Shown here piece after piece: positions 17,599 through 43,217 of a stretch of DNA of 64,000 bases (position 1 is the first letter of the stretch; each line of letters starts with the position of its first letter). The notes beneath the pieces were generated by a model. That model was not told where the DNA came from and searched no databases. It saw only the letters and a program-made list of their open reading frames with translations. Source of the DNA: an uncultured Ignavibacteriaceae bacterium (GTDB lineage: Bacteria; Bacteroidota; Ignavibacteria; UBA10030); the NCBI GenBank assembly GCA_964651225.1, contig CAZYYD010000001.1, positions 50,811 to 114,810 on the forward strand. Reading direction: 5' to 3'. A program made the position numbers and the translations under genes.

Positions 17599-17629
17599 CT
17601 TAAACCAATTGCCAATAGGAGCATCAAAT

Positions 17630-18208
17630 ATGAAACGAATGAAATTTATAACGCTAGCACTGGTGATAACATCAGTGTCGATTTTTGCACAGACAGCCTG
17701 GAAGCTCGATAAGGCCCATTCGGCGGTCACGTTTACCGTGAAACACATGGTTATATCAGATGTGTCCGGGTCATTCAAGGATTTCACACTGAACCTTGTT
17801 TCTGATAAAGAAGATTTTTCAGATGCCAAAGTAGAAAGTGTGATCAAAGTGGCAAGTATCAGCACGGATAATGAATATCGGGATAAACACCTGAAATCAG
17901 ATGATTTTTTCAATGCTGAAAAATTCCCTGAAATTCAGTTTAAAAGCACTTCATTTAAAAACATGGGCGAAAATAGGTATAAAATCACTGGCGATCTGAC
18001 TCTTCGGGATGTCACAAAAGAAGTCACATTTGATGCAATACTCAATGGAACTCTGAAGACTGACCGCGGGTTATTAAGTGCATGGAAAGCAACCACCGTC
18101 ATTAATCGCTTTGATTACAATCTCAAATGGAACAAAACCATAGAGACAGGCGGTCTAATAGTCGGACAGGATGTGACGATCACGTTGAACCTTGAATTGA
18201 ACAAGTAA
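17630..18208 (+). CDS. YceI-family periplasmic (polyisoprenoid-binding) protein
   Basis: A signal peptide plus the YceI-like pattern (WKLDKAHSAVTFTVKHM...). SD AGGAG lies before the ATG at 17630. Confidence 0.8.
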   Translation: MKRMKFITLALVITSVSIFAQTAWKLDKAHSAVTFTVKHMVISDVSGSFKDFTLNLVSDKEDFSDAKVESVIKVASISTDNEYRDKHLKSDDFFNAEKFPEIQFKSTSFKNMGENRYKITGDLTLRDVTKEVTFDAILNGTLKTDRGLLSAWKATTVINRFDYNLKWNKTIETGGLIVGQDVTITLNLELNK

Positions 18209-18416
18209 GAATCTTCCCTCAAAACGATGGAGCCCGTCTCGGCCTCGATTTTTAGGCGGGCTTCATCTCCTCTTTTCCATAAAGTATTGTCTTCTTCCTT
18301 GTAAACTCCGAGCCTTGCTATTGCTCTCTGCATTGGTTAATTTCTCTACGATTAAATTTTCCTTGCCGACTTGATGACGGTATTCATGCTCCCGTTCATG
18401 CGAGAAAGGATATTCC

Positions 18417-19526
18417 ATGAAACACCACAAGATCGTACGTATAGCTATTAACACCGGCGGCGGTGACGCACCCGGACTGAATGCTGTGATCCGTGCAGCG
18501 GTGGTTTCGGCCATCAATCGCGGATGGGAGTGCTACGGCATCCGTGACGGATACAACGGATTGATGGATCCCAAAAAATATCCCGAAGGAGGACTCATTC
18601 CGCTGCCGAAGTCAAGGGTACGCGGTATTACGCATCTTGGTGGGACGATTCTTGGTACCACCAACAAAGGAAATCCATTGAAATGGCCGGTGAAAAGGAA
18701 AGACGGCACATGGGTTGAAACAGATCGCACAGACGAATTACTCAAAGCGTTCAAGAAGAATAACATCGATGCACTGATTGCAATTGGCGGTGATGGTTCA
18801 CTGGGGATTGCGAATGCATTAGCCCAAAAAGGGCTCCGGGTAGTTGGTGTACCGAAAACTATTGATAACGATCTTGACAAAACGGTCATTACATTCGGCT
18901 TTGATACGGCTGTTTCCTTTGCGACGGCATGCATCGATAGACTCAATACTACTGCCGAATCCCACCAGCGTGTGATGATCGTCGAGGTGATGGGCCGTTA
19001 TGCCGGGTGGATTGCACTGGAATGCGGCATATCAAGCTCGGCAGACGTTATTCTCATTCCGGAAATTCCGTACGATATCCGTAAAGTGGTGCAAAAAATT
19101 GAAAACCGCGAAAAGTTAGGGGCAAAATTTTCGATCGTCGTTGTTGCGGAAGGGGCTAAACCACAAGGAGGCACTGTTTCAGTGGTTTCAAAAGAAATTG
19201 GCCGGGCCGAAAAACTGGGAGGCGCCGGTGAGCGAGTTGCAGGAGAAATACAGAAGCTGAGTGGAAAAGAGACGCGGTGCGTGGTGCTGGGACATTTGCT
19301 TCGCGGTGGCACACCGACTACGTTTGATAGGCTCATTTCACTACGATTTGGTGCGGCGGCTGTTCGTGCATTGGCGGAAGGGCAGAATGGCGTTATGGTG
19401 GCGCTTGATCCCCCGACGGTGCGGTATGTACCGCTTGCCGAAGCAACAAACCGGATGAAATGTGTTCCTCTTGACTGCGACATCATCCTGACAGGCCGCG
19501 ATCTGGGAATAAGTTTTGGCGATTGA
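18417..19526 (+). CDS. pfkA: 6-phosphofructokinase
   Basis: PFK family motifs (GGDAPGLNAVIRA, GGDGSL, PKTIDNDL, MGRYAGW). Confidence 0.9.
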   Translation: MKHHKIVRIAINTGGGDAPGLNAVIRAAVVSAINRGWECYGIRDGYNGLMDPKKYPEGGLIPLPKSRVRGITHLGGTILGTTNKGNPLKWPVKRKDGTWVETDRTDELLKAFKKNNIDALIAIGGDGSLGIANALAQKGLRVVGVPKTIDNDLDKTVITFGFDTAVSFATACIDRLNTTAESHQRVMIVEVMGRYAGWIALECGISSSADVILIPEIPYDIRKVVQKIENREKLGAKFSIVVVAEGAKPQGGTVSVVSKEIGRAEKLGGAGERVAGEIQKLSGKETRCVVLGHLLRGGTPTTFDRLISLRFGAAAVRALAEGQNGVMVALDPPTVRYVPLAEATNRMKCVPLDCDIILTGRDLGISFGD

Positions 19527-19542
19527 TACGATGAGGAATACT

Positions 19543-20031
19543 ATGGCCATTAGAATCTTTATCACCGGCGGCACTTTCGACAAAGAATATAACGAGTTGG
19601 ATGGGAAGCTGTTTTTCAAAGACACGCATTTACCGGAGATGTTAAAACTGGGGCGCTGCAAAATCCCGGTAGATGTACGCACGCTCATGCTTGTGGACAG
19701 CCTGGAGATGACGGATGCCGACCGGCAGATTATTGTCGACCATTGCCGAAAGTGCAAAGAAAATCGGATTGTTATCACCCATGGTACCGATACTATGCAG
19801 GATACTGTTCGAGTGCTTGGCAAAGCAATAAGCGGAAAAACCGTTGTCATAACCGGCGCGATGATACCGTATAAATTCGGCAGCTCCGATGGACTCTTTA
19901 ATTTAGGAAGCGCACTTGCTTTTGCGCAGACTCTTCCTCACGGAGTGTATATTGCTATGAACGGCCGCTATTTTTCGTGGGATAATGTGAAGAAGAATAA
20001 GAAATTGGGAGAGTTCGAAGAATCACGATAA
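19543..20031 (+). CDS. asparaginase N-terminal-domain-only protein
   Basis: ITGGTF and HGTDTM match the asparaginase/glutaminase N-domain signatures, but the protein is only about 160 aa. The SD GAGGAA before the 19543 ATG makes me prefer that start to 19516. Confidence 0.55.
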   Translation: MAIRIFITGGTFDKEYNELDGKLFFKDTHLPEMLKLGRCKIPVDVRTLMLVDSLEMTDADRQIIVDHCRKCKENRIVITHGTDTMQDTVRVLGKAISGKTVVITGAMIPYKFGSSDGLFNLGSALAFAQTLPHGVYIAMNGRYFSWDNVKKNKKLGEFEESR

Positions 20032-20170: not shown

Positions 20171-20220
20171 TCCCGTCTCGTCAGGAACGAGACGGGACGC
20201 TCTGAACCAGTCGCTCAATG
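20134..20220 (-). pseudogene. degenerate tRNA copy: a D-arm-like segment, a 10-bp perfect hairpin where the anticodon arm would be, and an intact variable/T-arm/acceptor 3' half identical to tRNA-Val
   Basis: The reverse complement reads GAGCGACTGGTTCAGAGCG-TCCCGTCTCG TTCCTGA CGAGACGGGA-AGGTC-ACTGGTTCGATCCCAGT-AGCGTCCA. No 5' acceptor strand exists upstream, so it cannot fold as a tRNA. Confidence 0.5.
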
Positions 20221-20459
20221 TATTTTCTGCTTTTTCGAGATTTGATTTCTTTTTCTCGCTTCATTGCTTCCGACCGCGTTCGAAAGGATTCGAAATACAC
20301 GACTTTCCAGGGAATTCCTCTTTTCGTATAAAGAGACCTTCCGGCGTTATGATATTTTTCTATCCGTTCTTGGAGGTCTTGAGTATGACCGGTATAATAG
20401 GAATCGAGAGAAATGCTGTAGAGAATGTATGTAGAATACGGCAAATCGATTTGAACCAT
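20181..20459 (-). CDS. GIY-YIG nuclease-family small protein (92 aa)
   Basis: GIY-YIG motifs YILYS...YYTGHT plus downstream R and E residues, at the ~90-aa size class of stand-alone GIY-YIG proteins. The last 12 codons and the stop lie inside the degenerate tRNA copy. Confidence 0.7.
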   Translation of the reverse strand: MVQIDLPYSTYILYSISLDSYYTGHTQDLQERIEKYHNAGRSLYTKRGIPWKVVYFESFRTRSEAMKREKEIKSRKSRKYIERLVQSVPSRS

Positions 20460-20461
20460 AT

Positions 20462-20498
20462 TAACGTGTGGACGCTACTGGGATCGAACCAGTGACCT
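20462..20498. repeat. 37-nt direct repeat copy 2
   Basis: Exact match to 20134..20170. Confidence 0.8.
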
Positions 20499-20543
20499 CG
20501 TGCTTGTAAGGCACGCGCTCTGAACCAGCTGAGCTAAGCGTCC
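20469..20543 (-). tRNA. tRNA-Val (anticodon TAC)
   Basis: Hand-folded cloverleaf: GGACGCT TA GCTC AGCTGGTTCA GAGC G CGTGC CTTACAA GCACG AGGTC ACTGG TTCGATC CCAGT AGCGTCC A. CCA is not encoded. Confidence 0.85.
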
Positions 20544-20856: not shown

Positions 20857-21834
20857 TTACTTGCGTGAATCGCTGAACGACCATGTGAATTTACCAGGCT
20901 CTAATATCTGCATCTGGTTGAGAGTTCTCGTGAGCAATTTCTCATCTAGGTGAACAGGAGATGCATCATGTTTCACAACAGAAAAATGCGGTGCTTTCCC
21001 TAGAACAGCCTCTGCGAGAAATTGGCCTCCGCCAACATGCAAATATTGACTGGAGTTTATCCCCATTTCCTGTATTGTTGAGAGAAAACTGTGGTAAGCA
21101 TAATCTTGAGAATCATCTAAAGAAGTAAACACGTACCCAAGCCCCTCGGGTCCCTGAAACAGAGCAAAAGTAAAAGGAACACTCGATAGGCTTTTTTCTT
21201 GAGAGGTTTGAACTGCTTCAAGAATATAATCGAGATTCATCCTTTCCGGCCTTAAGAATGGAAATGTCACACTGTAGGTTGTCGGAAGAGGACGCACTTC
21301 ACTATCAACAACTTCCACAAGCCTCGGATTCCTGAGAGTATATCCGTTTTCATCGAGAGGCTCGAGTGACACCTGTACAGTTTCTTCCTTTATATTAAAA
21401 AAATCACCGTAGGCCAAAAAGAATTTTTCAAGCTGCCTTGCACATTTAGCTTCTTCAAGTGTAAGCTGGCTGTGTACAATTCCCCTGACAAGATATGGCT
21501 TACTGTCCAGATTGTCGCCATGCAAGGAGCTCTTCTTCAGCATATGCTCGTTCAGATTCAAAATATCCTGCCGGTAACCCAGGGATTCCATATGCTGCCG
21601 AACCTCTGCAAACAAATCATTAAACTCTGCATGATCAGGACCATTCAACTTGGCACTGACATAAGGAACCTGGATCAAGTCCCTGTAATGCAACTCGTGG
21701 GTTGGTACTGCAGGATCGGAAATCTTCAAAAGCATATCCCGCAGGGTTTTGAGTTTAATCTTCTCCGAATCTAAAAAATTACCGGCATTGCGTTCGATAA
21801 GTCGATCCAACCGTTTTACGTATTGTTCGTTCAT
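20857..21834 (-). CDS. hypothetical protein (325 aa), no recognisable domain
   Basis: A long clean ORF in an AT-rich segment downstream of the tRNA-Val/GIY-YIG locus. I recognise no motifs. Confidence 0.5.
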   Translation of the reverse strand: MNEQYVKRLDRLIERNAGNFLDSEKIKLKTLRDMLLKISDPAVPTHELHYRDLIQVPYVSAKLNGPDHAEFNDLFAEVRQHMESLGYRQDILNLNEHMLKKSSLHGDNLDSKPYLVRGIVHSQLTLEEAKCARQLEKFFLAYGDFFNIKEETVQVSLEPLDENGYTLRNPRLVEVVDSEVRPLPTTYSVTFPFLRPERMNLDYILEAVQTSQEKSLSSVPFTFALFQGPEGLGYVFTSLDDSQDYAYHSFLSTIQEMGINSSQYLHVGGGQFLAEAVLGKAPHFSVVKHDASPVHLDEKLLTRTLNQMQILEPGKFTWSFSDSRK

Positions 21835-22165: not shown

Positions 22166-25126
22166 TCATTTTTTCGACAGATCGTTTTTTTCTTTTTTGA
22201 ATTCGCTGCGAAATTTCTCTGCACATTCTGGACAGAGCCCATGCGTAAATTTAGCCCCTGAATGCTCGATGATATATTTTTCCAATTGATTCCAATATCC
22301 CTTATCATCGCGTATTTTCTTGCACGAAGCACAAATAGGGATCAAGCCGCTTAATGTCTTAATATTTGCGAGGGCTTCCTGCAGTTCTAAAATGAGCTTT
22401 TCCCGTTCTCCTTCCATATGCTTGCGCAAAGTGATATCAGCAACAATAGCCATCCGTCCCGCCACGTTTCCAGCGGCATCATATATCGGTGCCGATGATA
22501 TACTCACATCGATGAACGTTCCATCCTTCCGCTGGCGGACGGTTTCCAGGTTGGTGATAGGTTTGCCCGTTGAAATTTGAGCACTTAATGTATTGTACTC
22601 GTCTTGTTTACCCAGGGGTACAATAGGATTGGGATGTCCGATAACTTTTTCTGATCTCCAGCCAAAGATTTGTTCCGCTGCGGTGTTCCAGAGTTGAACA
22701 TTCCCATCGGAATCAAGAAGCATAATGGCAAGCGGTGAGACCTGTACCAGGGTTTCGAGTTTAGCAGTACTGGTGCGCAATGCCTCTTCGGCCTGCTTGC
22801 GGTCAGTAACGTCCCTAAAGATACTTAGTGATACTATAGGTTGATCTGCAATTCTGAGGAATGTGTTTGACAGCTCAAGAGATTTTTTTTCACCATTCCA
22901 GAGAGTAATTGTCCGTTCTATGTGAGGGGGGATGCTTCTGGATCGGAAACGTTCCCGATGTTTATTCAAAATTTCTATTTTCCTTGCCTGTTCATAAACA
23001 ACAGACATCGGTTTCCCCTCAATTTCCGCACGTGGTTTCTCCATCATTTTGCAAAACGCATCATTCACTGAAATGACGTCGCCTGCTTCGTTTGTGATTC
23101 GCATTCCATCATTGCTTTTTTCCCAAACCGACCGAAACTTCTCTTCGCTTTCCTGCAATGTCTTCTCTGCATGCTTGCGCTCGGTAATATCTCGGGCCAC
23201 CCCTACTGTGGCGACGACTTTACCGCTTTCGTCTTTCACAACAGAAGTCCAGAGTTCAATAGGAAATTCACTCCCGTCTTTCCGACAGTTGAGAAGTTCG
23301 CCGTACCATCCCCCCGCAAGTGTTCCCGCTAGGATTTGACTTCCAACCTCTGGGGATGCGTTTACTAAACGGACGACCGATATCGGACGTCCTATCAACT
23401 CTTCACGGGTATACCTGTAGGTTTGTAGAAAAGCATCATTAACGAAGATGATCTTATCTTCAAAGTCCGCTATGGATATGCAGTCCTTCGTTGATGCCAA
23501 TGTCTGAGCCAGCAATCGAATCTCGCTTTCCGCCTTTCTGCGCTCAGTGATATCTTCCTTCACTGCAATGAAATGAGTAATGACATTGTCTTTGTCCTTG
23601 ACAGGCGAAATGGATGCCGTCTCCCAATACAGATCACCGTTTTTCTTCTTGTTGTGAAATTCACCCCGCCATTCCTTGCCCGACGTGATGTTTTCCCATA
23701 AGGTCTTGTATCCTTCCGCAGACATTTCACCCGATTTCAAAATGCGGGGATTCTTTCCGAGCGCTTCTCCCATTGTGTATCCCGTTATTTGTGTAAACTT
23801 AGGATTGACATATTCGATATTGCCGTGCGTGTCTGTGATGACAATGGTCGCAGGGCTTTGCTCAACGGCAAGAGAGAGTTTACGCAATTGATCTTCAGTC
23901 CGCTTGCGGTCCGTGATGTCCCGTGTGACCCCCAGGAGCGCTTTCACATCTCCAGCGGGTCCGGTCTCCCTCAATGGGACACTGGTTGTCTCGAGTGTCA
24001 ATCGTCGTCCCTTTAATCCGATAATATCATACACGAGATGGCGTGTTTCTCCGCGGAAGACAGCTTCCACCATCTCATTAAATGCAGACTTGTCTTTTTC
24101 CGCGACTACTCCTACTGCTTTCTTACCCCGGACCTGATCGAACGTAGCTTGAATCATAGCTAAGCCAGCGGGATTCATTTCCAGCACGCGCCCCTCACGA
24201 TCAAACAGCTTCACACATTCGGGTTCGTATGTAACAATGGTACGCCAGCGTTCTTCGCTCTCGCGCAGCGCTTCCTCCGCCTGTTTGCGTTCAGTAATAT
24301 CTCGGATCAGTCCGTCGTAGCGAACGAGGGCCCCCGACGAGTCATGGTATGGAACGGGAGTATTCGATACCCAACGCACATTGCCGTCTTTCCTTCGTAT
24401 TCGATGTTCAATAGAACTGGGGTCTTTGACGGAAAGGATACGTGATGCATGGTCTTTGACACGATCACGGTCTTCCGGATGCACCATGTTGAACCACAAA
24501 TAGGGGTCGGCGATAAACTCCTCTGCCGAATACCCGGTAACTGCGATACACCCTGGACCATGCACTGTCTTTACTACCCGGCCGTTCTCGAGGTAGGAGG
24601 TGAATATGTAATCTGTTAATGTGGTAACGATGCGGTGATACCGCTCCTCGCTCTCGCGCAGCGCCTCATCCGTGCGTTTGCGTTCAGTGATATTGCGGAA
24701 GGACCACACGCGTCCGGAGACAGTACCACCCAGAATCATTGGCCGGGAATAACGTTCAAAAACACGGCCATCCTTGAAGATCAGGATATCCATGTCTTCT
24801 GCGTCTGAATTGTAAAGTAAGTTCACTTTTTTAAGAAATGCATCAGGATCAATCAACTGATCGAGTACGAAATCCAGCAAAACACGGTCGTCCTTGCGCT
24901 CCATGAGAGTCTGAGGAATTCTCCATAGTTCGACAAATCGTTGGTTAGCTTGCAAAACCTTTCCCTTGCTGTCAACAGCGAGAATTCCATCCGCGGTGGA
25001 TTGGAGAGCAGCCCTGAATTGTGCTTCGCTTTCCCGCAGCGCTTTCTCAGTCTGTCTGCGCAATTTCAACGCCGGCTTTCTTGAAGGTTTCGGTGGCTGC
25101 TTTGTACGGATCTTTTTCTTAGGCAT
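22166..25126 (-). CDS. multi-PAS sensor protein (about 8 PAS/PAC modules) with no histidine kinase, GGDEF, EAL or HTH output; ends in a about 50-aa Cys/His-rich module
   Basis: PAS units recur, separated by DITERK(Q/R)AEEALRESEE linkers. The tail reads LIPICASCKKIRDDKGYWNQLEKYIIEHSGAKFTHGLCPECAEKF (C-x2-C ... H ... H-x2-C-x2-C). Confidence 0.85.
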   Translation of the reverse strand: MPKKKIRTKQPPKPSRKPALKLRRQTEKALRESEAQFRAALQSTADGILAVDSKGKVLQANQRFVELWRIPQTLMERKDDRVLLDFVLDQLIDPDAFLKKVNLLYNSDAEDMDILIFKDGRVFERYSRPMILGGTVSGRVWSFRNITERKRTDEALRESEERYHRIVTTLTDYIFTSYLENGRVVKTVHGPGCIAVTGYSAEEFIADPYLWFNMVHPEDRDRVKDHASRILSVKDPSSIEHRIRRKDGNVRWVSNTPVPYHDSSGALVRYDGLIRDITERKQAEEALRESEERWRTIVTYEPECVKLFDREGRVLEMNPAGLAMIQATFDQVRGKKAVGVVAEKDKSAFNEMVEAVFRGETRHLVYDIIGLKGRRLTLETTSVPLRETGPAGDVKALLGVTRDITDRKRTEDQLRKLSLAVEQSPATIVITDTHGNIEYVNPKFTQITGYTMGEALGKNPRILKSGEMSAEGYKTLWENITSGKEWRGEFHNKKKNGDLYWETASISPVKDKDNVITHFIAVKEDITERRKAESEIRLLAQTLASTKDCISIADFEDKIIFVNDAFLQTYRYTREELIGRPISVVRLVNASPEVGSQILAGTLAGGWYGELLNCRKDGSEFPIELWTSVVKDESGKVVATVGVARDITERKHAEKTLQESEEKFRSVWEKSNDGMRITNEAGDVISVNDAFCKMMEKPRAEIEGKPMSVVYEQARKIEILNKHRERFRSRSIPPHIERTITLWNGEKKSLELSNTFLRIADQPIVSLSIFRDVTDRKQAEEALRTSTAKLETLVQVSPLAIMLLDSDGNVQLWNTAAEQIFGWRSEKVIGHPNPIVPLGKQDEYNTLSAQISTGKPITNLETVRQRKDGTFIDVSISSAPIYDAAGNVAGRMAIVADITLRKHMEGEREKLILELQEALANIKTLSGLIPICASCKKIRDDKGYWNQLEKYIIEHSGAKFTHGLCPECAEKFRSEFKKEKNDLSKK

Positions 25127-25732: not shown

Positions 25733-26137
25733 ATGAACCAATCCCAGAATGACACCTCAGGGCTCTCCGCAAAGACAGCGCTCTGTCTTGCAGCAATAAC
25801 CATGGCGGGAGTGGATGGAGAGTTCAAGGAAGAGGAATTAGAAAAACTTCGCAAGCTGATTCAGGTCGATGAAACAGCCTTTTTCGATGCGCTTAAATTT
25901 TATACCGAGCAGCCTCTTGATGTCTGCATTAAAACTGTGTCCACTCGATTGAACGAAGGACAGAAGCGGATTGCATATCGCATGCTCTACGATCTCGCAC
26001 AGGTTGATAAGGATTTTGCGGTCTCCGAACAGGATCTTCTCGAACAATATGCCGCCATGTTTGGTTTGCGTAGAGATTTTATCGCTTCGGTAAGCGGGCC
26101 GGCAGGACACCAATACGATCTTTCTGTGTTTGAATAG
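25733..26137 (+). CDS. TerB-like (tellurite-resistance TerB family) domain protein
   Basis: Two TerB-like acidic-motif repeats (AGVDGEFKEEELEKL and AQVDKDFAVSEQDLL) on an all-helical about 130-aa scaffold. Tentative. Confidence 0.45.
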   Translation: MNQSQNDTSGLSAKTALCLAAITMAGVDGEFKEEELEKLRKLIQVDETAFFDALKFYTEQPLDVCIKTVSTRLNEGQKRIAYRMLYDLAQVDKDFAVSEQDLLEQYAAMFGLRRDFIASVSGPAGHQYDLSVFE

Positions 26138-26438: not shown

Positions 26439-26621
26439 ATGGTCCAGCAAGCAAACCCAGAGAGGATCGTTCGGGAGATCAAGCGAAAGACCCGGAAGAA
26501 ATACATAAGTGAAGAGAACATCCAGATTGTCCTGGAAGGATTACGGGGAGAGGAAGGAATCGCAGAGATCTGTCGACGAGAGGGCATCCATGCCTATATG
26601 TTCCATAGAGCGGAAGTAGCC
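26439..26621 (+). pseudogene. IS3-family transposase OrfA N-terminal HTH remnant (Transposase_8-like), fused in frame upstream of the hydrolase gene
   Basis: RKKYISEENIQIVLEGLRGEEGIAEICRREGIHAYMFHR matches the conserved OrfA/HTH_Tnp_1 pattern (..EfKxxvVLEaLkGExsiAElcReyGIhpnqly.W). No downstream transposase body is present. Confidence 0.5.
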
Positions 26622-27539
26622 ATGGTTCGCTCTTTTCTAAAATCCATATTTCTTTTCTTACTTGCATCCGTTCTCCTTCTGTGCGGGATAGCGCTGTATC
26701 TCTCGTACAAAGAATATACTTCATATTTCCGAACCCGCCATGGCCGTCTAATAAGCATCTCAGAACAACAAGATTCAACCGCGAGGAAATTTTGGATTAC
26801 GCTCGGCAATGACGATGGTTTCAACATCGACTGCGGGCTTCTTCTACCTCAACATTTCCGTAAACGTTCTCCTGCAATCGTCCTGTTAGGAGGTAAAGCG
26901 ACAGGGAAGTATGCTGTGGAATACGCGCTTGGAATTGATAGTGTCATCATCCTTGCCTTGGATTATCCGTATGAACCACGCCCGTCGTACACGTTCTGGA
27001 CGATTGTGCAAGATATACCGGCTGTGCGCAAAGCACTCATCGATATGGTGCCTGCATCCATGCTCGCCGTCGATTATTTGCGTCAGAGGAACGATGTCGA
27101 CACGGCAAAGATTGTCCTTTTAGGGTATAGTTTCGGTGCCCCGTTTGTTCCGGTGATTGTGGCACATGACCGACGTTACTCCGCTGTCTCAATGGTGTAT
27201 GGCGGCGGGGAATTGACTTCCATGATACGGCATAATGTGCGGCGATATGAAGGTGCGTTGCTGAGTGAGTTTGTTGGAAGACTTGGCGGGCTGCTTCTCC
27301 GTCCCTTGGAACCCATGCGGTACACGCAAAAAATTTCTCCGATACCACTGGTGATGATTAACGGAATCCATGATGAGCAGGTGCCACGTGCCAATACAGA
27401 AATTTTTTACAAGGCCGCACAGGAACCAAAGAAGATCGTCTATCTGGATTCGCGACACGTCAATCCGAATAATCCGGATCTCACCCGCCAGATAATCGCT
27501 GTATTAAAAGAAGAATTGAAAAGAATGCGTATTCTCTAA
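26622..27539 (+). CDS. alpha/beta-hydrolase (dienelactone-hydrolase-like) with N-terminal membrane anchor
   Basis: The start MVRSF is followed by a TM helix (IFLFLLASVLLLCGIALYL). A nucleophile-elbow-like GYSFG and an alpha/beta hydrolase C-terminus follow. The ORF track fuses it with the upstream remnant. Confidence 0.65.
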   Translation: MVRSFLKSIFLFLLASVLLLCGIALYLSYKEYTSYFRTRHGRLISISEQQDSTARKFWITLGNDDGFNIDCGLLLPQHFRKRSPAIVLLGGKATGKYAVEYALGIDSVIILALDYPYEPRPSYTFWTIVQDIPAVRKALIDMVPASMLAVDYLRQRNDVDTAKIVLLGYSFGAPFVPVIVAHDRRYSAVSMVYGGGELTSMIRHNVRRYEGALLSEFVGRLGGLLLRPLEPMRYTQKISPIPLVMINGIHDEQVPRANTEIFYKAAQEPKKIVYLDSRHVNPNNPDLTRQIIAVLKEELKRMRIL

Positions 27540-27633: not shown

Positions 27634-28650
27634 TCAATAACTCTCCTCACCAATCTCTACTTTCCCTCGAAAGACATAGTGAATAAAGGCTGAATAAGCG
27701 ATAACGATCGGGACACCAATCAATGCAATAAACAGCATTGTCCGCAATGTTAAATTGCTGGATGAGGAATTGTAAATCGTTAAACTATATGCCAGATCGA
27801 TGGAAGAAGGAACGAGTCGTGGAAATAAGCTTAATGCCATTTGGCCGAGCATTGCTGTAATGATGAGCGAGGAAATGAAAAAAGCACGGTGGTATCTTCC
27901 TGCTTTGAGAACGACAGGCAGGTAAACGATGGTGCCGATCAACAGAACCAGAAAGCAATAGAAGAGCGGATTTTTGGTGGTGTGCTCAAACAAAAAGGGG
28001 GATGCAAGCCACGACCAAATCGTCTGAATCACATACAGGAGAACAAATGGCATCCAGAGATTAGAAGCCCATCTCGCTGACCGTTCCCGAAGGATTCCTT
28101 CTGTTTTGGTCGCCAGATAAATCGCACCGTGCATGGTGAACAAAATCACACTCAGCAATCCAACACTCAAGGAATAAGGATTTAACAAGCCCAGAAATGT
28201 CCCCGTGTATGCGCCGGTGGCGTCCACAGGAACACCATGGAGGATGTTGCCGATAGCGACACCGAAGAGAAGCGCCGGCACAAAACTGCCAAGTCCAAAA
28301 GCCCAATCCCATGCACGCCGCCATGATGCAGAGGTCACCTTGCTACGGAATTCAAAGGATACCGCACGAAAAATGAGAGCTACCAGCAGCAGTATCATCG
28401 CAAGGTAGAATCCGCTGAAGACTGTTGCGTAAACAATCGGAAATGCGGCAAACAGTGCTCCACCGCCGGTAATCAGCCATACTTCATTGCCATCCCACAC
28501 CGGGCCGATCGCATTCATATGAATGCGGCGTTCTTGTTCATTGTTTGCGAAGAGAGAAAGAATGCCGACACCGAAATCGAATCCATCCAAAATTGCATAG
28601 CCGATGATCAAAACACCGACAAGCCAAAACCAAATTGTATTGAGATCCAT
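27634..28650 (-). CDS. cydB: cytochrome bd ubiquinol oxidase subunit II
   Basis: A polytopic CydB-like membrane protein immediately downstream of cydA. Confidence 0.9.
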   Translation of the reverse strand: MDLNTIWFWLVGVLIIGYAILDGFDFGVGILSLFANNEQERRIHMNAIGPVWDGNEVWLITGGGALFAAFPIVYATVFSGFYLAMILLLVALIFRAVSFEFRSKVTSASWRRAWDWAFGLGSFVPALLFGVAIGNILHGVPVDATGAYTGTFLGLLNPYSLSVGLLSVILFTMHGAIYLATKTEGILRERSARWASNLWMPFVLLYVIQTIWSWLASPFLFEHTTKNPLFYCFLVLLIGTIVYLPVVLKAGRYHRAFFISSLIITAMLGQMALSLFPRLVPSSIDLAYSLTIYNSSSSNLTLRTMLFIALIGVPIVIAYSAFIHYVFRGKVEIGEESY

Positions 28651-28662
28651 GGTCGTTTTCTC

Positions 28663-29994
28663 CTATCCTTGTGCCGGCTGCGGTCCGTGTTTGACTTCTC
28701 GTACGAGTACATACACGTAGAGGCTTCCGAGAAGTGCATAGATAAGCCCAAAGAGAATGATCGAAAAGAGAATTTCAGGTGCTGTGACAGTTATGGAATA
28801 AGATTCTGAGGTCCGGAGCAGTCCGTAGACAATCCATGGCTGCCTGCCGACCTCTGCGGCGATCCAACCTAACTGGCATGCTGCAAGAGGCAGGGGAATC
28901 GACCAGACAAAGAGCTTCAACAGCCATTTCTTGTCAAACAGTTTATTTTTTTTCAATAAGAAGACCGCATACGCTGTCACGGCGATGAAATAGAGTCCGA
29001 GGACGACCATATTGTGGAATGAAACAAAGGTTAACCATAGCGGAGGAATATTATCCGGCGGAAACTCATTGATCCCTTTGATGTGTGCATTGATATCGCC
29101 GAACGTCATCAAGCTTAACAATCCTTGAAGTTCTATTTTGGCTTTCAATTCGGGTGGCTGCGTAAACGGAATAGCAAAGAACACCAATGGTGCGCCTGAC
29201 TGGCTGACATACATTCCCTCAAGGGCGGCAAATTTTTCCGGCTGTGTATGTGCCACTTGTTTAGCATGTTCGTGGCCGAACGGCATAAGTTCCAGAAGCG
29301 AAGTGACCAAGCCGAAGATGATAGCAATGTTCATGGCTCGCTTTGCGAGTTCAACTTCTTTCCTTCTCAGAATAAGGAACGCAGCGATACCGGCGACGAA
29401 AAATGCACCCGTGATGAGTGCGGCATCAACCGTATGAAGATACCGGATCATGGTCGATGGATTAAACACTGCATCGTAGAAACTTGTCATCTCGGCCCTG
29501 TCGTTCCGCAGAATATATCCAGCCGGTGTTTGCTGCCACGAGTTTGCCACAATAATCCAAAACGCTGAGATTGTCGCTCCAATAGCTACCATGAAAATAG
29601 AAAACCAGTGAACGGCTTTGGAGACTTTGTTTCTACCGAAGAGATATAGTCCAAGAAATCCGGATTCGAGGAAGAAAGCGAAAATACCTTCTGCGGCAAG
29701 CGGCGCCCCAAAAATATCGCCGACAAACTTTGAATACACAGCCCAGTTTGTTCCAAATTGGAATTCCATCACGATACCGGTTGCGACACCGACCGCAAAA
29801 GTCAAGGCGAGCAGTTTTCCAAAAAATTTGCCCATACGAACGTACATTTCATCTCCTCTCCGCCAGCCTAGTCCTTCCATAATGACCAGGAGCCAAGCGA
29901 GTCCGATAGAAATGGGGGGGAAAAGAAAGTGAAAACCGATTGTCATCGCAAATTGTAAACGTGCCAGTAAGAGTGCATCCATGGGAATCTCCAT
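28663..29994 (-). CDS. cydA: cytochrome bd ubiquinol oxidase subunit I
   Basis: The conserved CydA N-terminus (LSRLQFAMTIGFHFLFPPISIG) and Q-loop region. The true start may be the internal Met at 29982. Confidence 0.9.
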   Translation of the reverse strand: MEIPMDALLLARLQFAMTIGFHFLFPPISIGLAWLLVIMEGLGWRRGDEMYVRMGKFFGKLLALTFAVGVATGIVMEFQFGTNWAVYSKFVGDIFGAPLAAEGIFAFFLESGFLGLYLFGRNKVSKAVHWFSIFMVAIGATISAFWIIVANSWQQTPAGYILRNDRAEMTSFYDAVFNPSTMIRYLHTVDAALITGAFFVAGIAAFLILRRKEVELAKRAMNIAIIFGLVTSLLELMPFGHEHAKQVAHTQPEKFAALEGMYVSQSGAPLVFFAIPFTQPPELKAKIELQGLLSLMTFGDINAHIKGINEFPPDNIPPLWLTFVSFHNMVVLGLYFIAVTAYAVFLLKKNKLFDKKWLLKLFVWSIPLPLAACQLGWIAAEVGRQPWIVYGLLRTSESYSITVTAPEILFSIILFGLIYALLGSLYVYVLVREVKHGPQPAQG

Positions 29995-40670: not shown

Positions 40671-43217
40671 TCACATCATTCCCTGCGGGTCAACATCGAT
40701 AATCATCTTGATCTTTCTGTTTGAGACTATGGGAGATGCCTCATATTGTGCTTTCGCTTTGAGGAGCGCCGAGCGGAGAAAGGATCCTGAGGGATCGCTG
40801 CTTTTTAGATCTTTTACAACCACATGCTTACGGTAAACATTTTTGATTTTCGGAATGGCGGCATCAGCCGGTCCTAGAACGATAAAACGGTTTTGCTGGT
40901 TGTGCATGACAAGAAACTCGACAAACTTTTTGGCATGGTGCTGCACTTCATTTTCCCGTTCCCCGGAAAACTCCAGAAGTACAATCCGGGAGAACGGGGG
41001 ATAATCCAGCTCGCGCCGGTATTCCAATTCTTCCCGATAAAATCCACGGGAGTCGTGGAGAATAACATGCTTCAAGCTGTAATGATCGGGCTGCAGTGTT
41101 TGGATAATCACTTCGCCGGCAAGATTGCTTCTGCCGGCGCGCCCCGAGACCTGCGTGAGCAATTGGAACGTTCCTTCGGAAGCGCGGAAATCCGGTAAGA
41201 GCATTTGTGTATCGGCAGAAATCACGCCGACCAGCGTAACGCGAGGAAAGTCTAATCCCTTGGCAACCATTTGCGTGCCGAGAAGAATATCTGCTTCACC
41301 CGATTCAAATTGTTTGAGAATTTTGTTGTGGGCGCCTTTGGCACTCGTGGTATCGCGGTCCATTCGGAGTATAACTGCTTTGGGAAAGAGCTGCTGCAGT
41401 TCCTGCTGCACCTGCTGTGTGCCGAAGGCATGCATCCGCAGTTCCGTGCCGCTGCACTTGGGGCAGATGGACGGCGGTTTCTTGACAAAGCCGCAGTAAT
41501 GACAGCGAAGATGTTTCTTGGTCGCGTGGAACGTTAACGAAACTTCGCAGTTGTCGCACTTTTCCACGTACCCACACTCGAAACATTCCAGCACATGCGA
41601 GAAGCCGCGCCTGTTCTGAAGAAGTATAACCCCTTCTTTGCGTTCCAACCGTCGGGCTATTTGTATCTGGAGGAGCTGTGAAATGGAAGAATCGGGAAGG
41701 CGTTTGGGAAACGGCTTCGCGCTCTTTTTGGTTTCAATTTTTAGTTCTTCATACACCCGCCGCCGTTCTTTCGCCATATCGACGATCTCAATCGTGGGCA
41801 ACTGGGCTGTGTCAACGCGGTTGGGCAATTCAAGCAGGGTGTATTTATTCTGGATGGCGTTGGCGAAACTTTCCGCCGAAGGTGTCGCTGATCCAAGGAT
41901 TACCACTGCCTTGATGTGTAATGCACGGACAAGCGCGACATCACGTGCATTGTAGCGCGGTGCGGCATCATATTGCTTGTAGGAACTGTCGTGCTCTTCG
42001 TCGACCACGATCAATCCAATGTTTTCTAACGGGGCGAAGATTGCCGAACGGGGCCCGATAACAATCCGGACCTTTCCCTGATGCGCCATCCGCCATGCAT
42101 CGTATCGTTCACCCACAGACATTTGACTATGCATGACGGCAACGTCATTTCCGAAATGAGCCTTAAACCGGCGGACGGTCTGCGGCGTCAGAGAAATTTC
42201 CGGTACAAGGACAATCGCTGTTTTGCCGAGGGCAAGGACTTTGCGGATCGCATCGATGTACACCTGTGTCTTTCCGCTGCCGGTAATCCCGTGGAGGAGA
42301 AATGCCCGGAATCCGCCTGATGATGCGGCGCCGGATATCTCGTTCAACGCATATTGTTGATTCGCATTCAGGATGATGTTGAGGGGCGGTCCTACCGGTT
42401 CGTACTCTGAGCGGCGGTATACTTCCCGTTCACCAATCTGGAGCACTCCATTTTTCACGAGTGTCTTAAGAGAAGAAAGTGAAGCATGGTGACGCTGTAA
42501 AAAAGGATTCATTTCCACAGCATCTGTCGGCGATGCTAATTCTTCCCTTAGTGCCTCTATAATCGCAAGCTGTTTTACAGAAAGAGCCTCTTTAGCCCTT
42601 TCATCCGACAAAATCTGCAATCCGGCGGAAGCAATGCTGACAAATCGTTCGATTTTCGGTTTCGCTTTCGGCTTTTCGATTTCTTCGGTGATAGAAATCC
42701 ATCCGCGTTGCTGCATCTCGTTCAAAACGGCATGGATGCTTTTTGTGTTCGATTTTCTTTGCAGCTGCGCAATGTTTAGCGGTGTACCATGCGCAAGCGC
42801 CTGCAGTATCGCATACTGGCGCGGTGCAGATTTTCTCGTAGACTGAAGAAGGTCTTCCACCTTTTGAGCAATCAGACATACACTTTGTTTACTTTCCTGC
42901 GACAATCCTTGCGGTGTCGCCGCTCTCAGCACTTCACCCCAGGGAGCATAATAATAGTTACTCATCCATTGTGTAAGTGAGAGAATCTCCGCAGAAAAGG
43001 AGGGCTTCGTATCAAGAATATCTGTCACCGGCTTGAGGCCGCGGATATCCGTAAAGGGGGGCAGTGCAACGATAACGCCGGTAAGATGTTTTTTCCCGAA
43101 TGGAACGAGCGCACGGTTGCCGGGTAGAGCAGAAGATTGTAGTCCAGGCGGAACGAGATACGTGAATATGCGGTCAAGGGGAACAGGGAGAGCAATATCG
43201 ACAAGGAAGGGCTGCAA
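40671..43217 (-). CDS. priA: primosomal protein N' (replication restart helicase)
   Basis: N-terminal 3'-DNA-binding domain, DExH helicase core (GSGKT, DEEH) and the Cys-rich zinc-binding region (CFECGYVEKCDNCEVSLTFH...CHYCGF...CPKCSG). Confidence 0.9.
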   Translation of the reverse strand: MQPFLVDIALPVPLDRIFTYLVPPGLQSSALPGNRALVPFGKKHLTGVIVALPPFTDIRGLKPVTDILDTKPSFSAEILSLTQWMSNYYYAPWGEVLRAATPQGLSQESKQSVCLIAQKVEDLLQSTRKSAPRQYAILQALAHGTPLNIAQLQRKSNTKSIHAVLNEMQQRGWISITEEIEKPKAKPKIERFVSIASAGLQILSDERAKEALSVKQLAIIEALREELASPTDAVEMNPFLQRHHASLSSLKTLVKNGVLQIGEREVYRRSEYEPVGPPLNIILNANQQYALNEISGAASSGGFRAFLLHGITGSGKTQVYIDAIRKVLALGKTAIVLVPEISLTPQTVRRFKAHFGNDVAVMHSQMSVGERYDAWRMAHQGKVRIVIGPRSAIFAPLENIGLIVVDEEHDSSYKQYDAAPRYNARDVALVRALHIKAVVILGSATPSAESFANAIQNKYTLLELPNRVDTAQLPTIEIVDMAKERRRVYEELKIETKKSAKPFPKRLPDSSISQLLQIQIARRLERKEGVILLQNRRGFSHVLECFECGYVEKCDNCEVSLTFHATKKHLRCHYCGFVKKPPSICPKCSGTELRMHAFGTQQVQQELQQLFPKAVILRMDRDTTSAKGAHNKILKQFESGEADILLGTQMVAKGLDFPRVTLVGVISADTQMLLPDFRASEGTFQLLTQVSGRAGRSNLAGEVIIQTLQPDHYSLKHVILHDSRGFYREELEYRRELDYPPFSRIVLLEFSGERENEVQHHAKKFVEFLVMHNQQNRFIVLGPADAAIPKIKNVYRKHVVVKDLKSSDPSGSFLRSALLKAKAQYEASPIVSNRKIKMIIDVDPQGMM

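Follow-up and report, generated by a model that had tools for sequence, protein, structure and literature searches.

An unnamed C-terminal Cys4/His2 module as a candidate output of a seven-PAS protein from an uncultured Ignavibacteriaceae bacterium

The 986-aa multi-PAS protein encoded in the window, a 64,000-nucleotide stretch of DNA from an uncultured Ignavibacteriaceae bacterium, ends in a helix and a Cys4/His2 core (Table 1), which together represent a large family without a name or a solved structure. This module occupies the C-terminal position, where it replaces the classical transmitters, and some of its relatives stand in a two-component context. The balance of the evidence tips slightly towards a transmitter or output function, in which a Zn(Cys)4 core on a signal-switched dimeric helix would bind a conserved partner, and not specific DNA sequences.

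Table 1 Features of the 986-aa ORF and their positions in the window
Feature	Residues (aa)	Position	Strand	Basis or remark
Whole ORF		22166..25126	-	Cytoplasmic multi-PAS sensor of 986 aa that ends in the Cys/His module; stop codon, 22166-22168
N-terminal basic leader (MPKKKIRTKQPPKPSRKPALKLRRQT)	1-26	25049..25126	-	Read from translation
PAS1	27-152	24671..25048	-	PAS_7 at 42-154; TIGR00229 x7; junction at aa 148
PAS2	160-281	24284..24649	-	PAS_3 at 192-273
PAS3	289-406	23909..24262	-	PAS_4 at 302-409
PAS4	412-535	23522..23893	-	Alignments of the NifL and YtvA models cover aa 420-540
PAS5	540-653	23168..23509	-	PAS profile matches, unit comparison
PAS6	661-775	22802..23146	-	PAS profile matches, unit comparison
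PAS7	783-896	22439..22780	-	PAS_10 at 790-899; Diguanyl_cycl_sensor at 799-877
Signalling helix (DITLRKHMEGEREKLILELQEALANIKTLS)	897-926	22349..22438	-	Conservation and predicted helix
Cys4/His2 core (GLIPICASCKKIRDDKGYWNQLEKYIIEHSGAKFTHGLCPECAEKFR)	927-973	22208..22348	-	Conservation, 29-residue spacing, AlphaFold2
Variable lysine-rich C-terminal extension	974-986	22169..22207	-	No conservation in homologs

The protein is soluble, with 0 TM-like segments in a sequence scan, and an identical 986-aa protein is encoded on public contigs, the longest of 192 kb. TIGR00229 scored 438.6 bits over seven stretches (cut-off, 22.9), placing the protein among the PAS S-box proteins, and PAS_9, PAS_4, PAS, PAS_3 and PAS_8 all scored far over their cut-offs, while the leader matched no family in the Pfam and NCBIfam profiles. 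An earlier, sequence-only reading had counted eight PAS units; the seven TIGR00229 stretches, the seven '[DN][IV]T[EDL]R[KR]' junctions in the protein and the full length, which is accounted for by 26 + 7 x ~120 + 90 aa, all give seven. The recent internal duplication that the same reading deduced from the similar linkers was not borne out, because the seven units share just 15-31% pairwise identity, and DNA-level repeats in the ORF are limited to linker segments of 40-76 nt with 60-83% identity. The linkers are not evidence of duplication: a 'DITERKxAE' junction also precedes the module in unrelated homologs of other phyla, and "DITERK…" is a generic PAS/linker junction. The best PDB relatives of PAS4 were MmoS (3EWK, E=9e-32), NifL (2GJ3, E=2e-16) and Aer (8DIK), suggesting that this unit is related to the FAD-binding redox-sensor PAS domains (MmoS PAS-A, NifL PAS1 and Aer) and may carry their cofactor. 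It lacks the photoadduct cysteine, since it has GKNPRILKSG where the LOV motif has GxNCRFLQ.

HisKA, HATPase_c, GGDEF, EAL, HD-GYP and HTH had no match in the ORF with the Pfam and NCBIfam profiles, even at E<=1, in agreement with the initial impression of a protein with no kinase or other known output, and a search of the C-terminus for a degenerate kinase or other effector domain detected none. A sensor histidine kinase was rejected on the lack of HisKA/HATPase_c matches at E<=1 and on the 90 residues that follow the last PAS unit; the NCBIfam models of kinase families aligned in their PAS portions only, with scores far under the cut-off. A c-di-GMP enzyme was likewise rejected, as PF00990, PF00563 and PF01966/PF13487 had no match in the 986-aa ORF, and GGDEF, EAL and HD-GYP domains were detectable by this search, because the same query found them in paralogous multi-PAS proteins. 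The closest relatives of the PAS array terminate in HK, GGDEF/EAL or HD-GYP domains, which argues that the module is interchangeable with the classical transmitters.

In the tail (aa 897-986), the Cys and His residues are arranged as C932-x2-C935 ... H955 ... H962-x2-C965-x2-C968, with the CASC…CPEC segment of the core at 22223-22333; C932, C935, C965 and C968 are putative metal ligands, and H962 (95% conserved) and H955 (89%) lie near them. The helix and the Cys4 core span ~75 residues, of which the core past the helix makes up ~50, and in the window the module comes after PAS7 and the protein stops 18 residues past the last Cys. The heptad hydrophobics of the signalling helix are I912, L915, L919 and I922; across the family, the helix carries the signature E-R-E-K-L-I-x-E-L-Q-x-A-L, with columns E11, R12, L19, A22 and L29 conserved at 91-99% and E11-R12-E13 at 91/91/86%. 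The family consensus reads EREKLIxELQxALxxVKTLSGLLPICxxCKKIRDDxGYWxQxExYIxxHSxAxFSHGxCPxC, and the family is defined by the pattern EREKLI…L-x-G-[LI][LI]-P-I-C-x2-C-K-K-I-R-D-D-x-G-Y-W … E-x-Y … H-S-x-A-x-F-[ST]-H-G-x-C-P-x-C, located no more than ~30 residues from the C-terminus and behind a signalling input domain. The window tail agrees with each invariant column of two family alignments, and thus belongs to this family. At least 1,396 tail homologs were retrieved in one search, the best 120 at 60-79% identity with E-values down to 4e-34, and all of these 120 keep the Cys/His pattern, indicating that the terminal module picked out by the sequence-only reading is a discrete conserved unit. 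That reading would have given way had the Cys residues proved variable; all four are invariant in homologs, and the C2-to-C3 spacing was 29 residues in 350/350 cases. Among 47 sequences from many phyla, 17 columns were invariant and 12 further ones were at least 90% conserved. The invariant polar and aromatic residues are R43, D44, D45, Y48, W49, E53, Y55, H59, S60 and H66, and an invariant K40-K41-x-R43 patch is followed directly by D44-D45, with the aromatics Y48/W49. A profile search had been suggested as a way of naming the module; the last ~90 aa matched nothing in Pfam-A (2025), NCBIfam 20 or the PDB, and no description of it was found in open-access papers or bioRxiv, consistent with an uncharacterised output module.

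The family comprises 24,447 clusters (50% identity) at E<=1e-3 and 20,027 at E<=1e-10, with at least 600 loci in species-representative genomes, and is found mainly in lineages that are anaerobic or microaerophilic. Its carriers include Thermodesulfobacteriota, Nitrospirota, Spirochaetota/Leptospirales, Ignavibacteria/Bacteroidota, Acidobacteriota and Verrucomicrobiota, as well as anammox Planctomycetes, Zixibacteria, Calditrichota, Elusimicrobia, Gemmatimonadota, Dehalococcoidia and Gammaproteobacteria, and the members are at present labelled 'PAS domain S-box protein', 'response regulator' or 'hypothetical'. In homologs, the module always closes the chain, lying within ~30 residues of its end, and the chains stop 6-29 residues beyond the last Cys in an unconserved extension. 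The domains preceding it in 74 members were PAS (55/74), REC (11), GAF (5), HAMP (4), HisKA_7TM (4) and dCache (3), with MASE3, CHASE, MEDS and TPR as further inputs, and the same helix leads into the core after REC, HAMP, GAF and PAS inputs. The module is thus not a peculiarity of PAS-only sensors, as had been supposed, since it also ends response regulators and GAF, HAMP, Cache, CHASE and 7TM receptors. The family members profiled showed no classical output besides the module, and the ten longest members hold only input domains in addition to it. Minimal members consist of TM helices, the helix and the core, so that the core is their sole cytoplasmic domain; stand-alone coiled-coil–module proteins also exist, and 40-44% of the family members have a membrane anchor (TM segments). 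In 4/6 loci examined, a REC–module gene lies directly behind a HisKA+HATPase_c kinase, with the gene order HK, REC, REC–module in three of those four.

AlphaFold2 model 1 (helix and core) was all-helical without strands, with the helix (2-28) at pLDDT 84-90, and model 2 (core only) was beta-knuckle-alpha-beta-knuckle-alpha, with two strands separated by a helix. The core had pLDDT 78-95 in these models, which disagree on secondary structure, and the five models per run span pLDDT 61-90. Both CxxC pairs were predicted at strand-end/helix-start knuckles. The Foldseek matches of the core-only model were weak Rossmann-like fragments, all with E>=3.5. In a zinc ribbon, a pair of zinc knuckles, both located in beta-hairpins, form a three-stranded sheet. 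The Cys/His spacing had been read as that of a zinc ribbon or a treble clef; the ribbon was not predicted by AlphaFold2, and no zinc-ribbon Pfam family matched the module at E<=1. Model 2 is treble-clef-like at best, its second CxxC at a helix N-terminus being nearer a treble clef than a ribbon, though the models disagree.

The module shares its position with HisKA-HATPase_c, GGDEF, EAL, HD-GYP and the MCP signalling domain, being likewise joined through a heptad helix, and like the MCP signalling domain it is very highly conserved whatever the input. It differs from these known transmitters in its core of only ~50 residues past the helix with four invariant Cys, and none of them showed sequence or profile similarity to it in Pfam and NCBIfam. 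The S-helix is a ~40-residue parallel coiled coil that links input and output domains and has a central 'ERT' signature (Anantharaman et al. 2006, PMC1592074); the module helix has the central E-R-x in common with it, but the third residue is E, not T. The Cys spacing is identical to that of the GspE/PilB CM subdomain, exemplified by EpsE, in which the four Cys of CXXC-X29-CXXC were experimentally shown to coordinate Zn and are essential (PMC5061722). The Zn site of EpsE is only structural, and the residues between its Cys are ~30% conserved and interchangeable (PMC5061722). The EpsE subdomain is an insertion in an ATPase domain, whereas the module is terminal and its inter-Cys segment near-invariant; membership of the GspE/PilB CM subdomain was rejected, as the spacing matches but neither a T2SSE/ATPase context nor a profile match was present.

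Papillomavirus E7 CR3 and E6 have the same CxxC-x29-CxxC arrangement, with the second pair as 'CPxC' where the last helix begins. E7 CR3 has the topology beta-beta-alpha-beta-alpha, which the beta/alpha order of the core-only AlphaFold2 model resembles, and forms a Zn-stapled dimeric protein-binding surface, the same mode that we propose for the module. E6 and E7 occur in viruses of eukaryotes, whereas the module is bacterial. Membership was rejected (hhalign probability, 2.6%, misaligned; Foldseek against the PDB retrieved neither), and the resemblance serves as a lead only. Rubredoxin, with C-x2-C-G … x29 … C-P-x-C-G and Fe(Cys)4, has a Cys spacing identical to that of the module and shares the Pro after the third Cys, but its Gly after each knuckle is missing from the module (CKK…, CPECA) and the long helices predicted for the module are absent from it; this membership was also rejected, with no PF00301 match at E<=1 and an hhalign probability of 1.7% over 7 residues. 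The ZAS motif, H-x3-C-x2-C (RsrA, ChrR), belongs to an N-terminal four-helix bundle, and DksA/TraR has C-x2-C-x17-C-x2-C after an antiparallel coiled coil. Both are small, helical, Zn-stapled domains that act by binding a conserved protein of the transcription machinery. The module resembles them in its H-x2-C-x2-C at a helix start and resembles DksA in having a CxxC…CxxC finger after a long helix; it differs from ZAS in having H-x2-C, not H-x3-C, at the C-terminus, not the N-terminus, and from DksA/TraR in that 29, not 17, residues separate the Cys pairs. Neither ZAS (zf-HC2; no PF13490 match; hhalign against RsrA, 0.15%) nor the DksA/TraR C4 finger (no PF01258 match; hhalign, 0.65%) was retained as a family assignment. 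HalOD2, found by census, is an archaeal response-regulator output with two CXXC motifs and a predicted Zn finger, and is present in a few halobacteria only, with a 20-25-residue spacing and a HalX-like N-terminal part (Galperin et al. 2018, PMC5847659). It is, like the module, a receiver-linked, C-terminal predicted Zn-finger output, but the module occurs in bacteria and in vastly greater numbers, and its spacing is fixed at 29 residues.

In the mechanism that we favour, the protein would be a soluble cytoplasmic integrator, in which seven divergent PAS units, at least one of them of the flavin/redox type (MmoS/NifL-like), feed the core via the coiled-coil helix. Helix and core would form a self-contained C-terminal transmitter in the position of a histidine-kinase, GGDEF or DNA-binding domain. 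The four invariant Cys (CxxC-x29-CPxC) would most likely bind a single structural Zn(II), and the module is probably Zn(Cys)4-stabilised, because CxxC-x29-CxxC is a proven Zn site in EpsE and both pairs lie at predicted knuckles. The near-invariant residues between the Cys (KKIRDD-GYW-E-Y-HS-F-H) may be the working surface. An input signal, namely PAS ligand or redox state here and phosphorylation in the REC–module proteins, would shift the dimeric helix in its register or packing and alter the presentation of the two cores, and partner binding would thereby be switched on or off. The partner might be a conserved cellular protein, or possibly a small ligand, common to all module-bearing sensors. 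Besides Zn binding, we infer dimerisation and this mode of partner binding. We prefer such a shared target to specific DNA sites because the inter-Cys surface is near-invariant across phyla and in sensors whose inputs are unrelated, the core carries a slight negative charge (family mean net charge, -1.2), 40-44% of the members are membrane-anchored and no neighbour is conserved; moreover, the same stretch is variable in EpsE, where the Zn site is structural only. No recurring neighbour gene family was found across 77 module loci, and the absence of a conserved neighbour gene does not by itself demonstrate a partner.

The nucleic-acid binding suggested by the sequence-only reading would imply a zinc-finger-type output, with a signal-driven rearrangement of the dimer that lets the KKIR core bind DNA, as a transcription factor would, or RNA. 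A dimeric coiled coil with a basic region is a common, bZIP-like DNA-binding logic, the invariant K40-K41-x-R43 patch and the aromatics Y48/W49 point the same way, and response-regulator C-terminal Cys4 zinc domains such as the archaeal HalOD2 have been proposed as DNA or RNA binders (PMC5847659). We nevertheless consider this output unlikely, and the suggestion is weakened: the mean charge of the core is negative, D44-D45 come directly after the basic patch, and a near-identical surface in thousands of sensors with differing inputs would send all of them to one site. Neither an HTH nor any known DNA-binding profile gave a match, and the 77 loci had no target-like conserved neighbour genes. 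One-component DNA binders are reportedly overwhelmingly cytoplasmic, against the TM segments in 40-44% of the members; membrane-tethered DNA-binding regulators, ToxR and CadC, do exist. The conserved K-K-x-R patch fits nucleic-acid or nucleotide binding too. It is decidedly unlikely that the Cys4/His2 centre is instead a sensor that gates dimerisation through its state of oxidation or its metal occupancy, either as a redox-active switch of thiols and zinc or as an Fe(Cys)4 centre of the rubredoxin type, which would make the module a further input or a redox gate and not purely an output. The REC–module regulators and the TM-helix–module receptors hold no other possible output domain, and a pure input would not account for about 15 near-invariant surface residues that are not ligands. 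Zinc-thiolate redox switches are an established mechanism in Hsp33 and RsrA, and such a sensor would suit the rubredoxin-like C-x2-C-x29-C-P-x-C spacing, the CPxC at a helix N-terminus, which is the active-site layout of thiol-disulfide oxidoreductases, the anaerobic or microaerophilic lineages, and the flavin-type redox PAS and nearby cydAB in the window; the low hhalign probabilities for rubredoxin (1.7%) and ZAS/RsrA (0.15%) and the lack of a Pfam match speak against it.

We give only a slim chance to a tiny enzymatic or sequestering transmitter that binds or processes a small molecule, such as a nucleotide second messenger, or a metal bound by His/Asp/Glu, and thereby connects many sensors with a single diffusible signal. 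Such an output would account for the unlinked partner gene and for a module common to membrane and soluble sensors, and there are more invariant polar and aromatic residues than a binding interface usually needs; however, about 50 residues are very few for catalysis, and no known enzyme or nucleotide-binding profile in Pfam, NCBIfam or the PDB is similar. The core-only beta-alpha-beta-alpha arrangement, with its CxxC pairs where Rossmann-like units bind phosphates, was not reproduced by the all-helical model, and the Foldseek matches all had E>=3.5. Structural Zn(Cys)4 sites lock the dimerisation domains of Fur/PerR, and a weak PerR match was seen, consistent with a module that is only a cap for dimerisation or stability, a zinc staple that closes the coiled coil, with signalling via PAS or REC (as phosphate sinks or PAS-PAS heterodimers with kinases). 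The identical Cys spacing plays a structural role in EpsE (PMC5061722), and the HK, REC, REC–module cassettes might work as branched phosphorelays in which receivers act as sinks. Such a cap is very improbable, because a staple needs no near-invariant inter-Cys segment, that of EpsE being variable and interchangeable, and because the minimal TM-helix–module proteins and the stand-alone coiled-coil–module proteins hold nothing else for signalling.

Extended to the whole family, the transmitter reading would make the module an unrecognised major transmitter class comparable to the histidine-kinase core, GGDEF and MCP, whose sensors converge on one universal target or signalling chemistry, a possibility that we regard as tentative and, on present evidence, doubtful. 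If it were true, this convergence would involve thousands of PAS, GAF, REC, Cache and 7TM sensors from over a dozen phyla, most of them anaerobic. Censuses of bacterial signalling sort sensors by output, and proteins like the window ORF are counted as output-less; the evidence suggests that about 24,000 clusters have the constrained terminal module, including genuine response regulators encoded beside kinases. If so, a sizeable share of signalling in sulfate reducers, syntrophs, Nitrospirota, spirochaetes and Ignavibacteria, among others, would use an undescribed mechanism. Identification of the partner or activity would give thousands of orphan sensors an output at once and would justify a new Pfam/NCBIfam domain model. 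The module is small (~75 aa) and sharply defined, and its ligand and surface residues are accessible to mutation.

The adjacent gene encodes a 325-aa protein that had been put forward as a likely partner, a role that its distribution speaks against: it has just two homologs among 5.8 billion proteins, and in the 68%-identical relative it does not adjoin a PAS–module gene, indicating that it is a near-orphan, not a family partner. The gene for the window protein also sits near cydAB.

The tail of the sensor (its last 90 residues) consists mainly of a signalling helix and a Cys4/His2 core, together the module, and ends with the sequence quoted in the sequence-only reading, which had proposed an HMM search for a named domain there. 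No Pfam or NCBIfam family matched the tail: the Pfam matches at E ≤ 1 were 11-30-residue noise (DUF3039, DUF7351, DUF7630), and NCBIfam gave none. In addition, no PDB relative was found by sequence or by family profile (best E = 0.023, with the Cys unaligned); the Rad50 zinc hook and PerR, both at E > 2, were noise from the coiled coil plus CxxC. The tail alone as the query retrieved at least 1,396 proteins, and the best 120 of these, at 60-79% identity, all contain C-x2-C … H-x2-C-x2-C (120/120). When 1.84 billion cluster representatives were searched exhaustively with a family profile, 24,447 clusters matched at E ≤ 1e-3, 20,027 of them at E ≤ 1e-10. Scanning a single genome for each species gave at least 600 loci; the 80 that were kept were dominated by Thermodesulfobacteriota and also included Nitrospirota, Spirochaetota/Leptospirales, Ignavibacteria/Bacteroidota, Acidobacteriota, Verrucomicrobiota, an anammox planctomycete, Zixibacteria, Calditrichota, Elusimicrobia, Gemmatimonadota, Dehalococcoidia and Gammaproteobacteria.

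Across the family, the consensus sequence reads EREKLIxELQxALxxVKTLSGLLPIC(A/S)xCKKIRDDxGYWxQxExYIxxHSxAxF(S/T)HG(I/L)CPxC, with 17 invariant alignment columns and 12 more conserved at 90% or above. Exactly 29 residues separate the second Cys from the third in 350 of 350 module instances. Loss of the Cys residues in homologs would have spoken against the metal site first proposed; all four (C932, C935, C965 and C968 in the sensor) are invariant. H962 and H955, measured without forcing His, are conserved at 95% and 89%, the latter being at times Arg or Asn, and the four Cys are therefore likely to be the obligatory ligands.

The CxxC-x29-CxxC spacing is found in several known zinc or metal units. 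In the CM subdomain of EpsE/GspE, where the Cys spacing is identical to that of the module, it forms a Zn(Cys)4 site proven by experiment, and the residues between the Cys pairs are about 30% conserved and interchangeable (PMC5061722). Those of the module are, in contrast, almost invariant, which implies that the inter-Cys loop itself is the functional surface. Papillomavirus E6/E7 zinc domains have the same spacing. Rubredoxin shares it too. Kinship with the four Cys-rich proteins compared by hhalign was rejected, with probabilities of 1.7% for rubredoxin, 0.15% for RsrA (ZAS), 0.65% for DksA and 2.6% for HPV16 E7. Thus, the shared spacing argues for a Zn(Cys)4 staple, but the insignificant profile comparisons do not place the module in these families. 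An HNH-type CxxC…H…CxxC nuclease finger was also dismissed, as there was no HNH Pfam match and the His spacing differs. The conserved heptad helix carries an E-R-E signature reminiscent of the "ERT" of the S-helix.

AlphaFold2 modelled the 90-residue tail (mean pLDDT 82) as a long N-terminal helix (tail residues 2-28) followed by three more helices, and the 63-residue core alone (pLDDT 89.9) as a strand, a CxxC knuckle, a helix, a strand and a CPxC that opens a long helix. Both models share the helix at YWNQLEKYIIEH, the C-terminal helix from CPEC and the location of both Cys pairs at knuckles, and they differ in the remaining secondary structure, so both predicted folds are provisional. Of the "zinc-ribbon or treble-clef" originally suggested, the predicted core-only structure is treble-clef-like, and neither model is a classical zinc ribbon.

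We surveyed the domains upstream of the module in 74 module-bearing ORFs from genomes. PAS was by far the most frequent (55/74), followed by REC (11), GAF (5), HAMP and HisKA_7TM (4 each), dCache (3) and MASE3 (2), and CHASE, MEDS, TPR and Tll0287-like domains were also present. The module always lies within about 30 residues of the C-terminus. The ten longest family members are made up of input modules alone, 5TMR-LYT and Reg_prop/Y_Y_Y among them, and lack any known output domain. TM-like segments occur in about 40-44% of the full-length members, and some members have nothing apart from a membrane domain followed by helix and core. In four of six loci examined, the REC-module gene lies directly downstream of a HisKA+HATPase_c kinase, and in three of these four the order is kinase, receiver, receiver-module. 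The carriers of this three-gene cassette, in which the stand-alone receiver has about 150 residues, belong to unrelated lineages (Desulfobulbaceae, Desulfobacterales and an anammox planctomycete), and its recurrence suggests a conserved branched phosphorelay into the module. Moreover, the closest relatives of the sensor's PAS array (28-40% identity; the named matches are Ignavibacteria/Bacteroidota) end in a kinase, GGDEF/EAL or HD-GYP. Taken together, the C-terminal position, the upstream inputs, the kinase-REC context and these relatives with classical outputs show that helix and core together form a transmitter/output module that can take the place of the classical ones and vice versa.

We propose that each module would hold one structural Zn and that module proteins would dimerise through the helix, so that a signal could reposition the two cores, which may bind a conserved partner or ligand that all module-bearing proteins share. 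A common target of this kind, as opposed to specific DNA sites, is favoured by a surface that is invariant across sensors with unrelated inputs, by the slightly acidic core (mean net charge -1.2), by the frequent membrane anchoring and by the lack of a conserved neighbouring gene: when ORFs within ±6 kb of 77 module loci were clustered, no non-sensor family occurred in more than four loci. Source annotations call the members "PAS domain S-box protein", "response regulator" or "hypothetical", and no description of the module was found in open-access papers, bioRxiv or signalling censuses. The sensor is an ordinary member, and the interest lies in the family itself, a very common and sharply defined output module with neither a name nor an assigned function.

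Where a protein has two modules, the whole unit is repeated in tandem, and such proteins provide no evidence for an internal, non-terminal role. Several of P0121-P0135 and P0162 (family proteins) are such tandems (REC-module-REC-module, TM-module-TM-module), which could reflect either true fusion of neighbouring paralogs or read-through in gene calling; P0162 has a second, degenerate core 24 residues past the first, without its own helix. At least one protein, P0068, is a genuine stand-alone coiled coil plus module. Many short stand-alone members were set aside as fragments or split genes. For example, the 109-aa P0043 starts at the very next base after a 307-aa PAS ORF on a 4-Mb long-read contig. 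The two most likely represent a single gene broken by a frameshift or an assembly error, which cautions that many of the short members in databases are artefacts. The only module match in 72,556 plasmids, on the Dongshaea marina plasmid NZ_CP028898.1, is a core remnant downstream of a GAF-domain gene with an IS21 transposase between them, and seems to derive from a GAF-module sensor that an IS element interrupted.

Coordinates of the sensor, its neighbours and selected loci (window positions unless marked aa or given with a locus handle, Lnnn)
Feature	Position	Strand	Description
Sensor	22166..25126	-	986-aa ORF
PAS units of sensor	aa 27-152, 160-281, 289-406, 412-535, 540-653, 661-775, 783-896		seven units
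PAS4	23522-23893	-	fourth PAS unit
Tail	aa 897-986		helix aa 897-926, core aa 927-973
325-aa ORF	20857..21834	-	331 nt from the sensor's stop codon
TerB-like gene	25733-26137	+	134 aa, divergent from sensor
GIY-YIG gene	20181-20543	-	92 aa, E=3e-16
tRNA gene	20469-20543		
366-aa ORF	26439-27539	+	HTH_Tnp_1-like N-terminus, hydrolase body
Neighbourhood genes	27634-29994	-	oxidase and others, with next row
Neighbourhood genes	17609-20031	+	
PriA helicase	40671-43217	-	
CxxC…CxxC of PriA	41493-41585		Cys-rich region
Kinase, receiver, receiver-module	L022:2354-6309, L031:549-3514, L042:1287-5079 (also L033:4391-6258)		
P0043 and PAS ORF	L084:4077-5330		
Plasmid remnant	L083:1822-5117		

In the sensor itself, Pfam and NCBIfam recognised PAS domains alone. 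TIGR00229 matched seven stretches (438.6 bits) and a "[DN][IV]T[EDL]R[KR]" junction closes each of seven units, correcting the earlier count of eight. The reported absence of classical outputs was confirmed, as HisKA, HATPase_c, GGDEF, EAL, HD-GYP and HTH models from both collections gave no match at E ≤ 1; the sensor also has no TM-like segment. The similar linkers had been read as recent internal duplication, but the PAS units are 15-31% identical to each other, DNA-level repeats in the gene are only linker segments of 40-76 nt with 60-83% identity, and a "DITERKxAE" junction also precedes the module in unrelated proteins of other phyla, indicating that the linkers do not reflect such an event. 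PAS4 resembles the FAD-binding redox PAS domains of MmoS (3EWK, E=9e-32), NifL and Aer far more than it resembles its six sister units, and has GKNPRILKSG where LOV domains carry the photoactive Cys. By sequence it is of the MmoS/NifL/Aer type, with FAD as its predicted cofactor, making a redox input to the sensor plausible.

An identical protein, flanked by the same genes, is present on public metagenomic contigs as long as 192 kb. The adjacent 325-aa ORF, once suggested as a partner, matched nothing in Pfam or NCBIfam, and a search of 5.8 billion proteins found just two homologs, 95% and 68% identical to it; the 68% relative lies beside a TerB-like gene, without an intervening PAS-module gene. 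This near-orphan without syntenic position is thus not a family-wide partner; an interaction specific to this lineage could still exist. In the related locus L086, a TerB-like gene adjoins the 325-aa homolog and a PAS gene. The only other CxxC…CxxC in the window belongs to PriA and is unrelated to the module. Genes in the neighbourhood of the sensor encode cytochrome bd oxidase subunits I/II, a YceI-like protein, phosphofructokinase and an asparaginase-family protein. The proximity of the oxidase to a sensor that has a flavin-type PAS unit could be significant or fortuitous. The N-terminal match of the 366-aa ORF is weak (E=0.13) and precedes an alpha/beta-hydrolase (Peptidase_S9/DLH) body. 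The true start could lie further downstream, or the ORF could carry a fused piece of a transposase. A small GIY-YIG gene next to a tRNA can be a sign of a mobile or integration-prone site, and the one in the window lies directly beside a tRNA gene.
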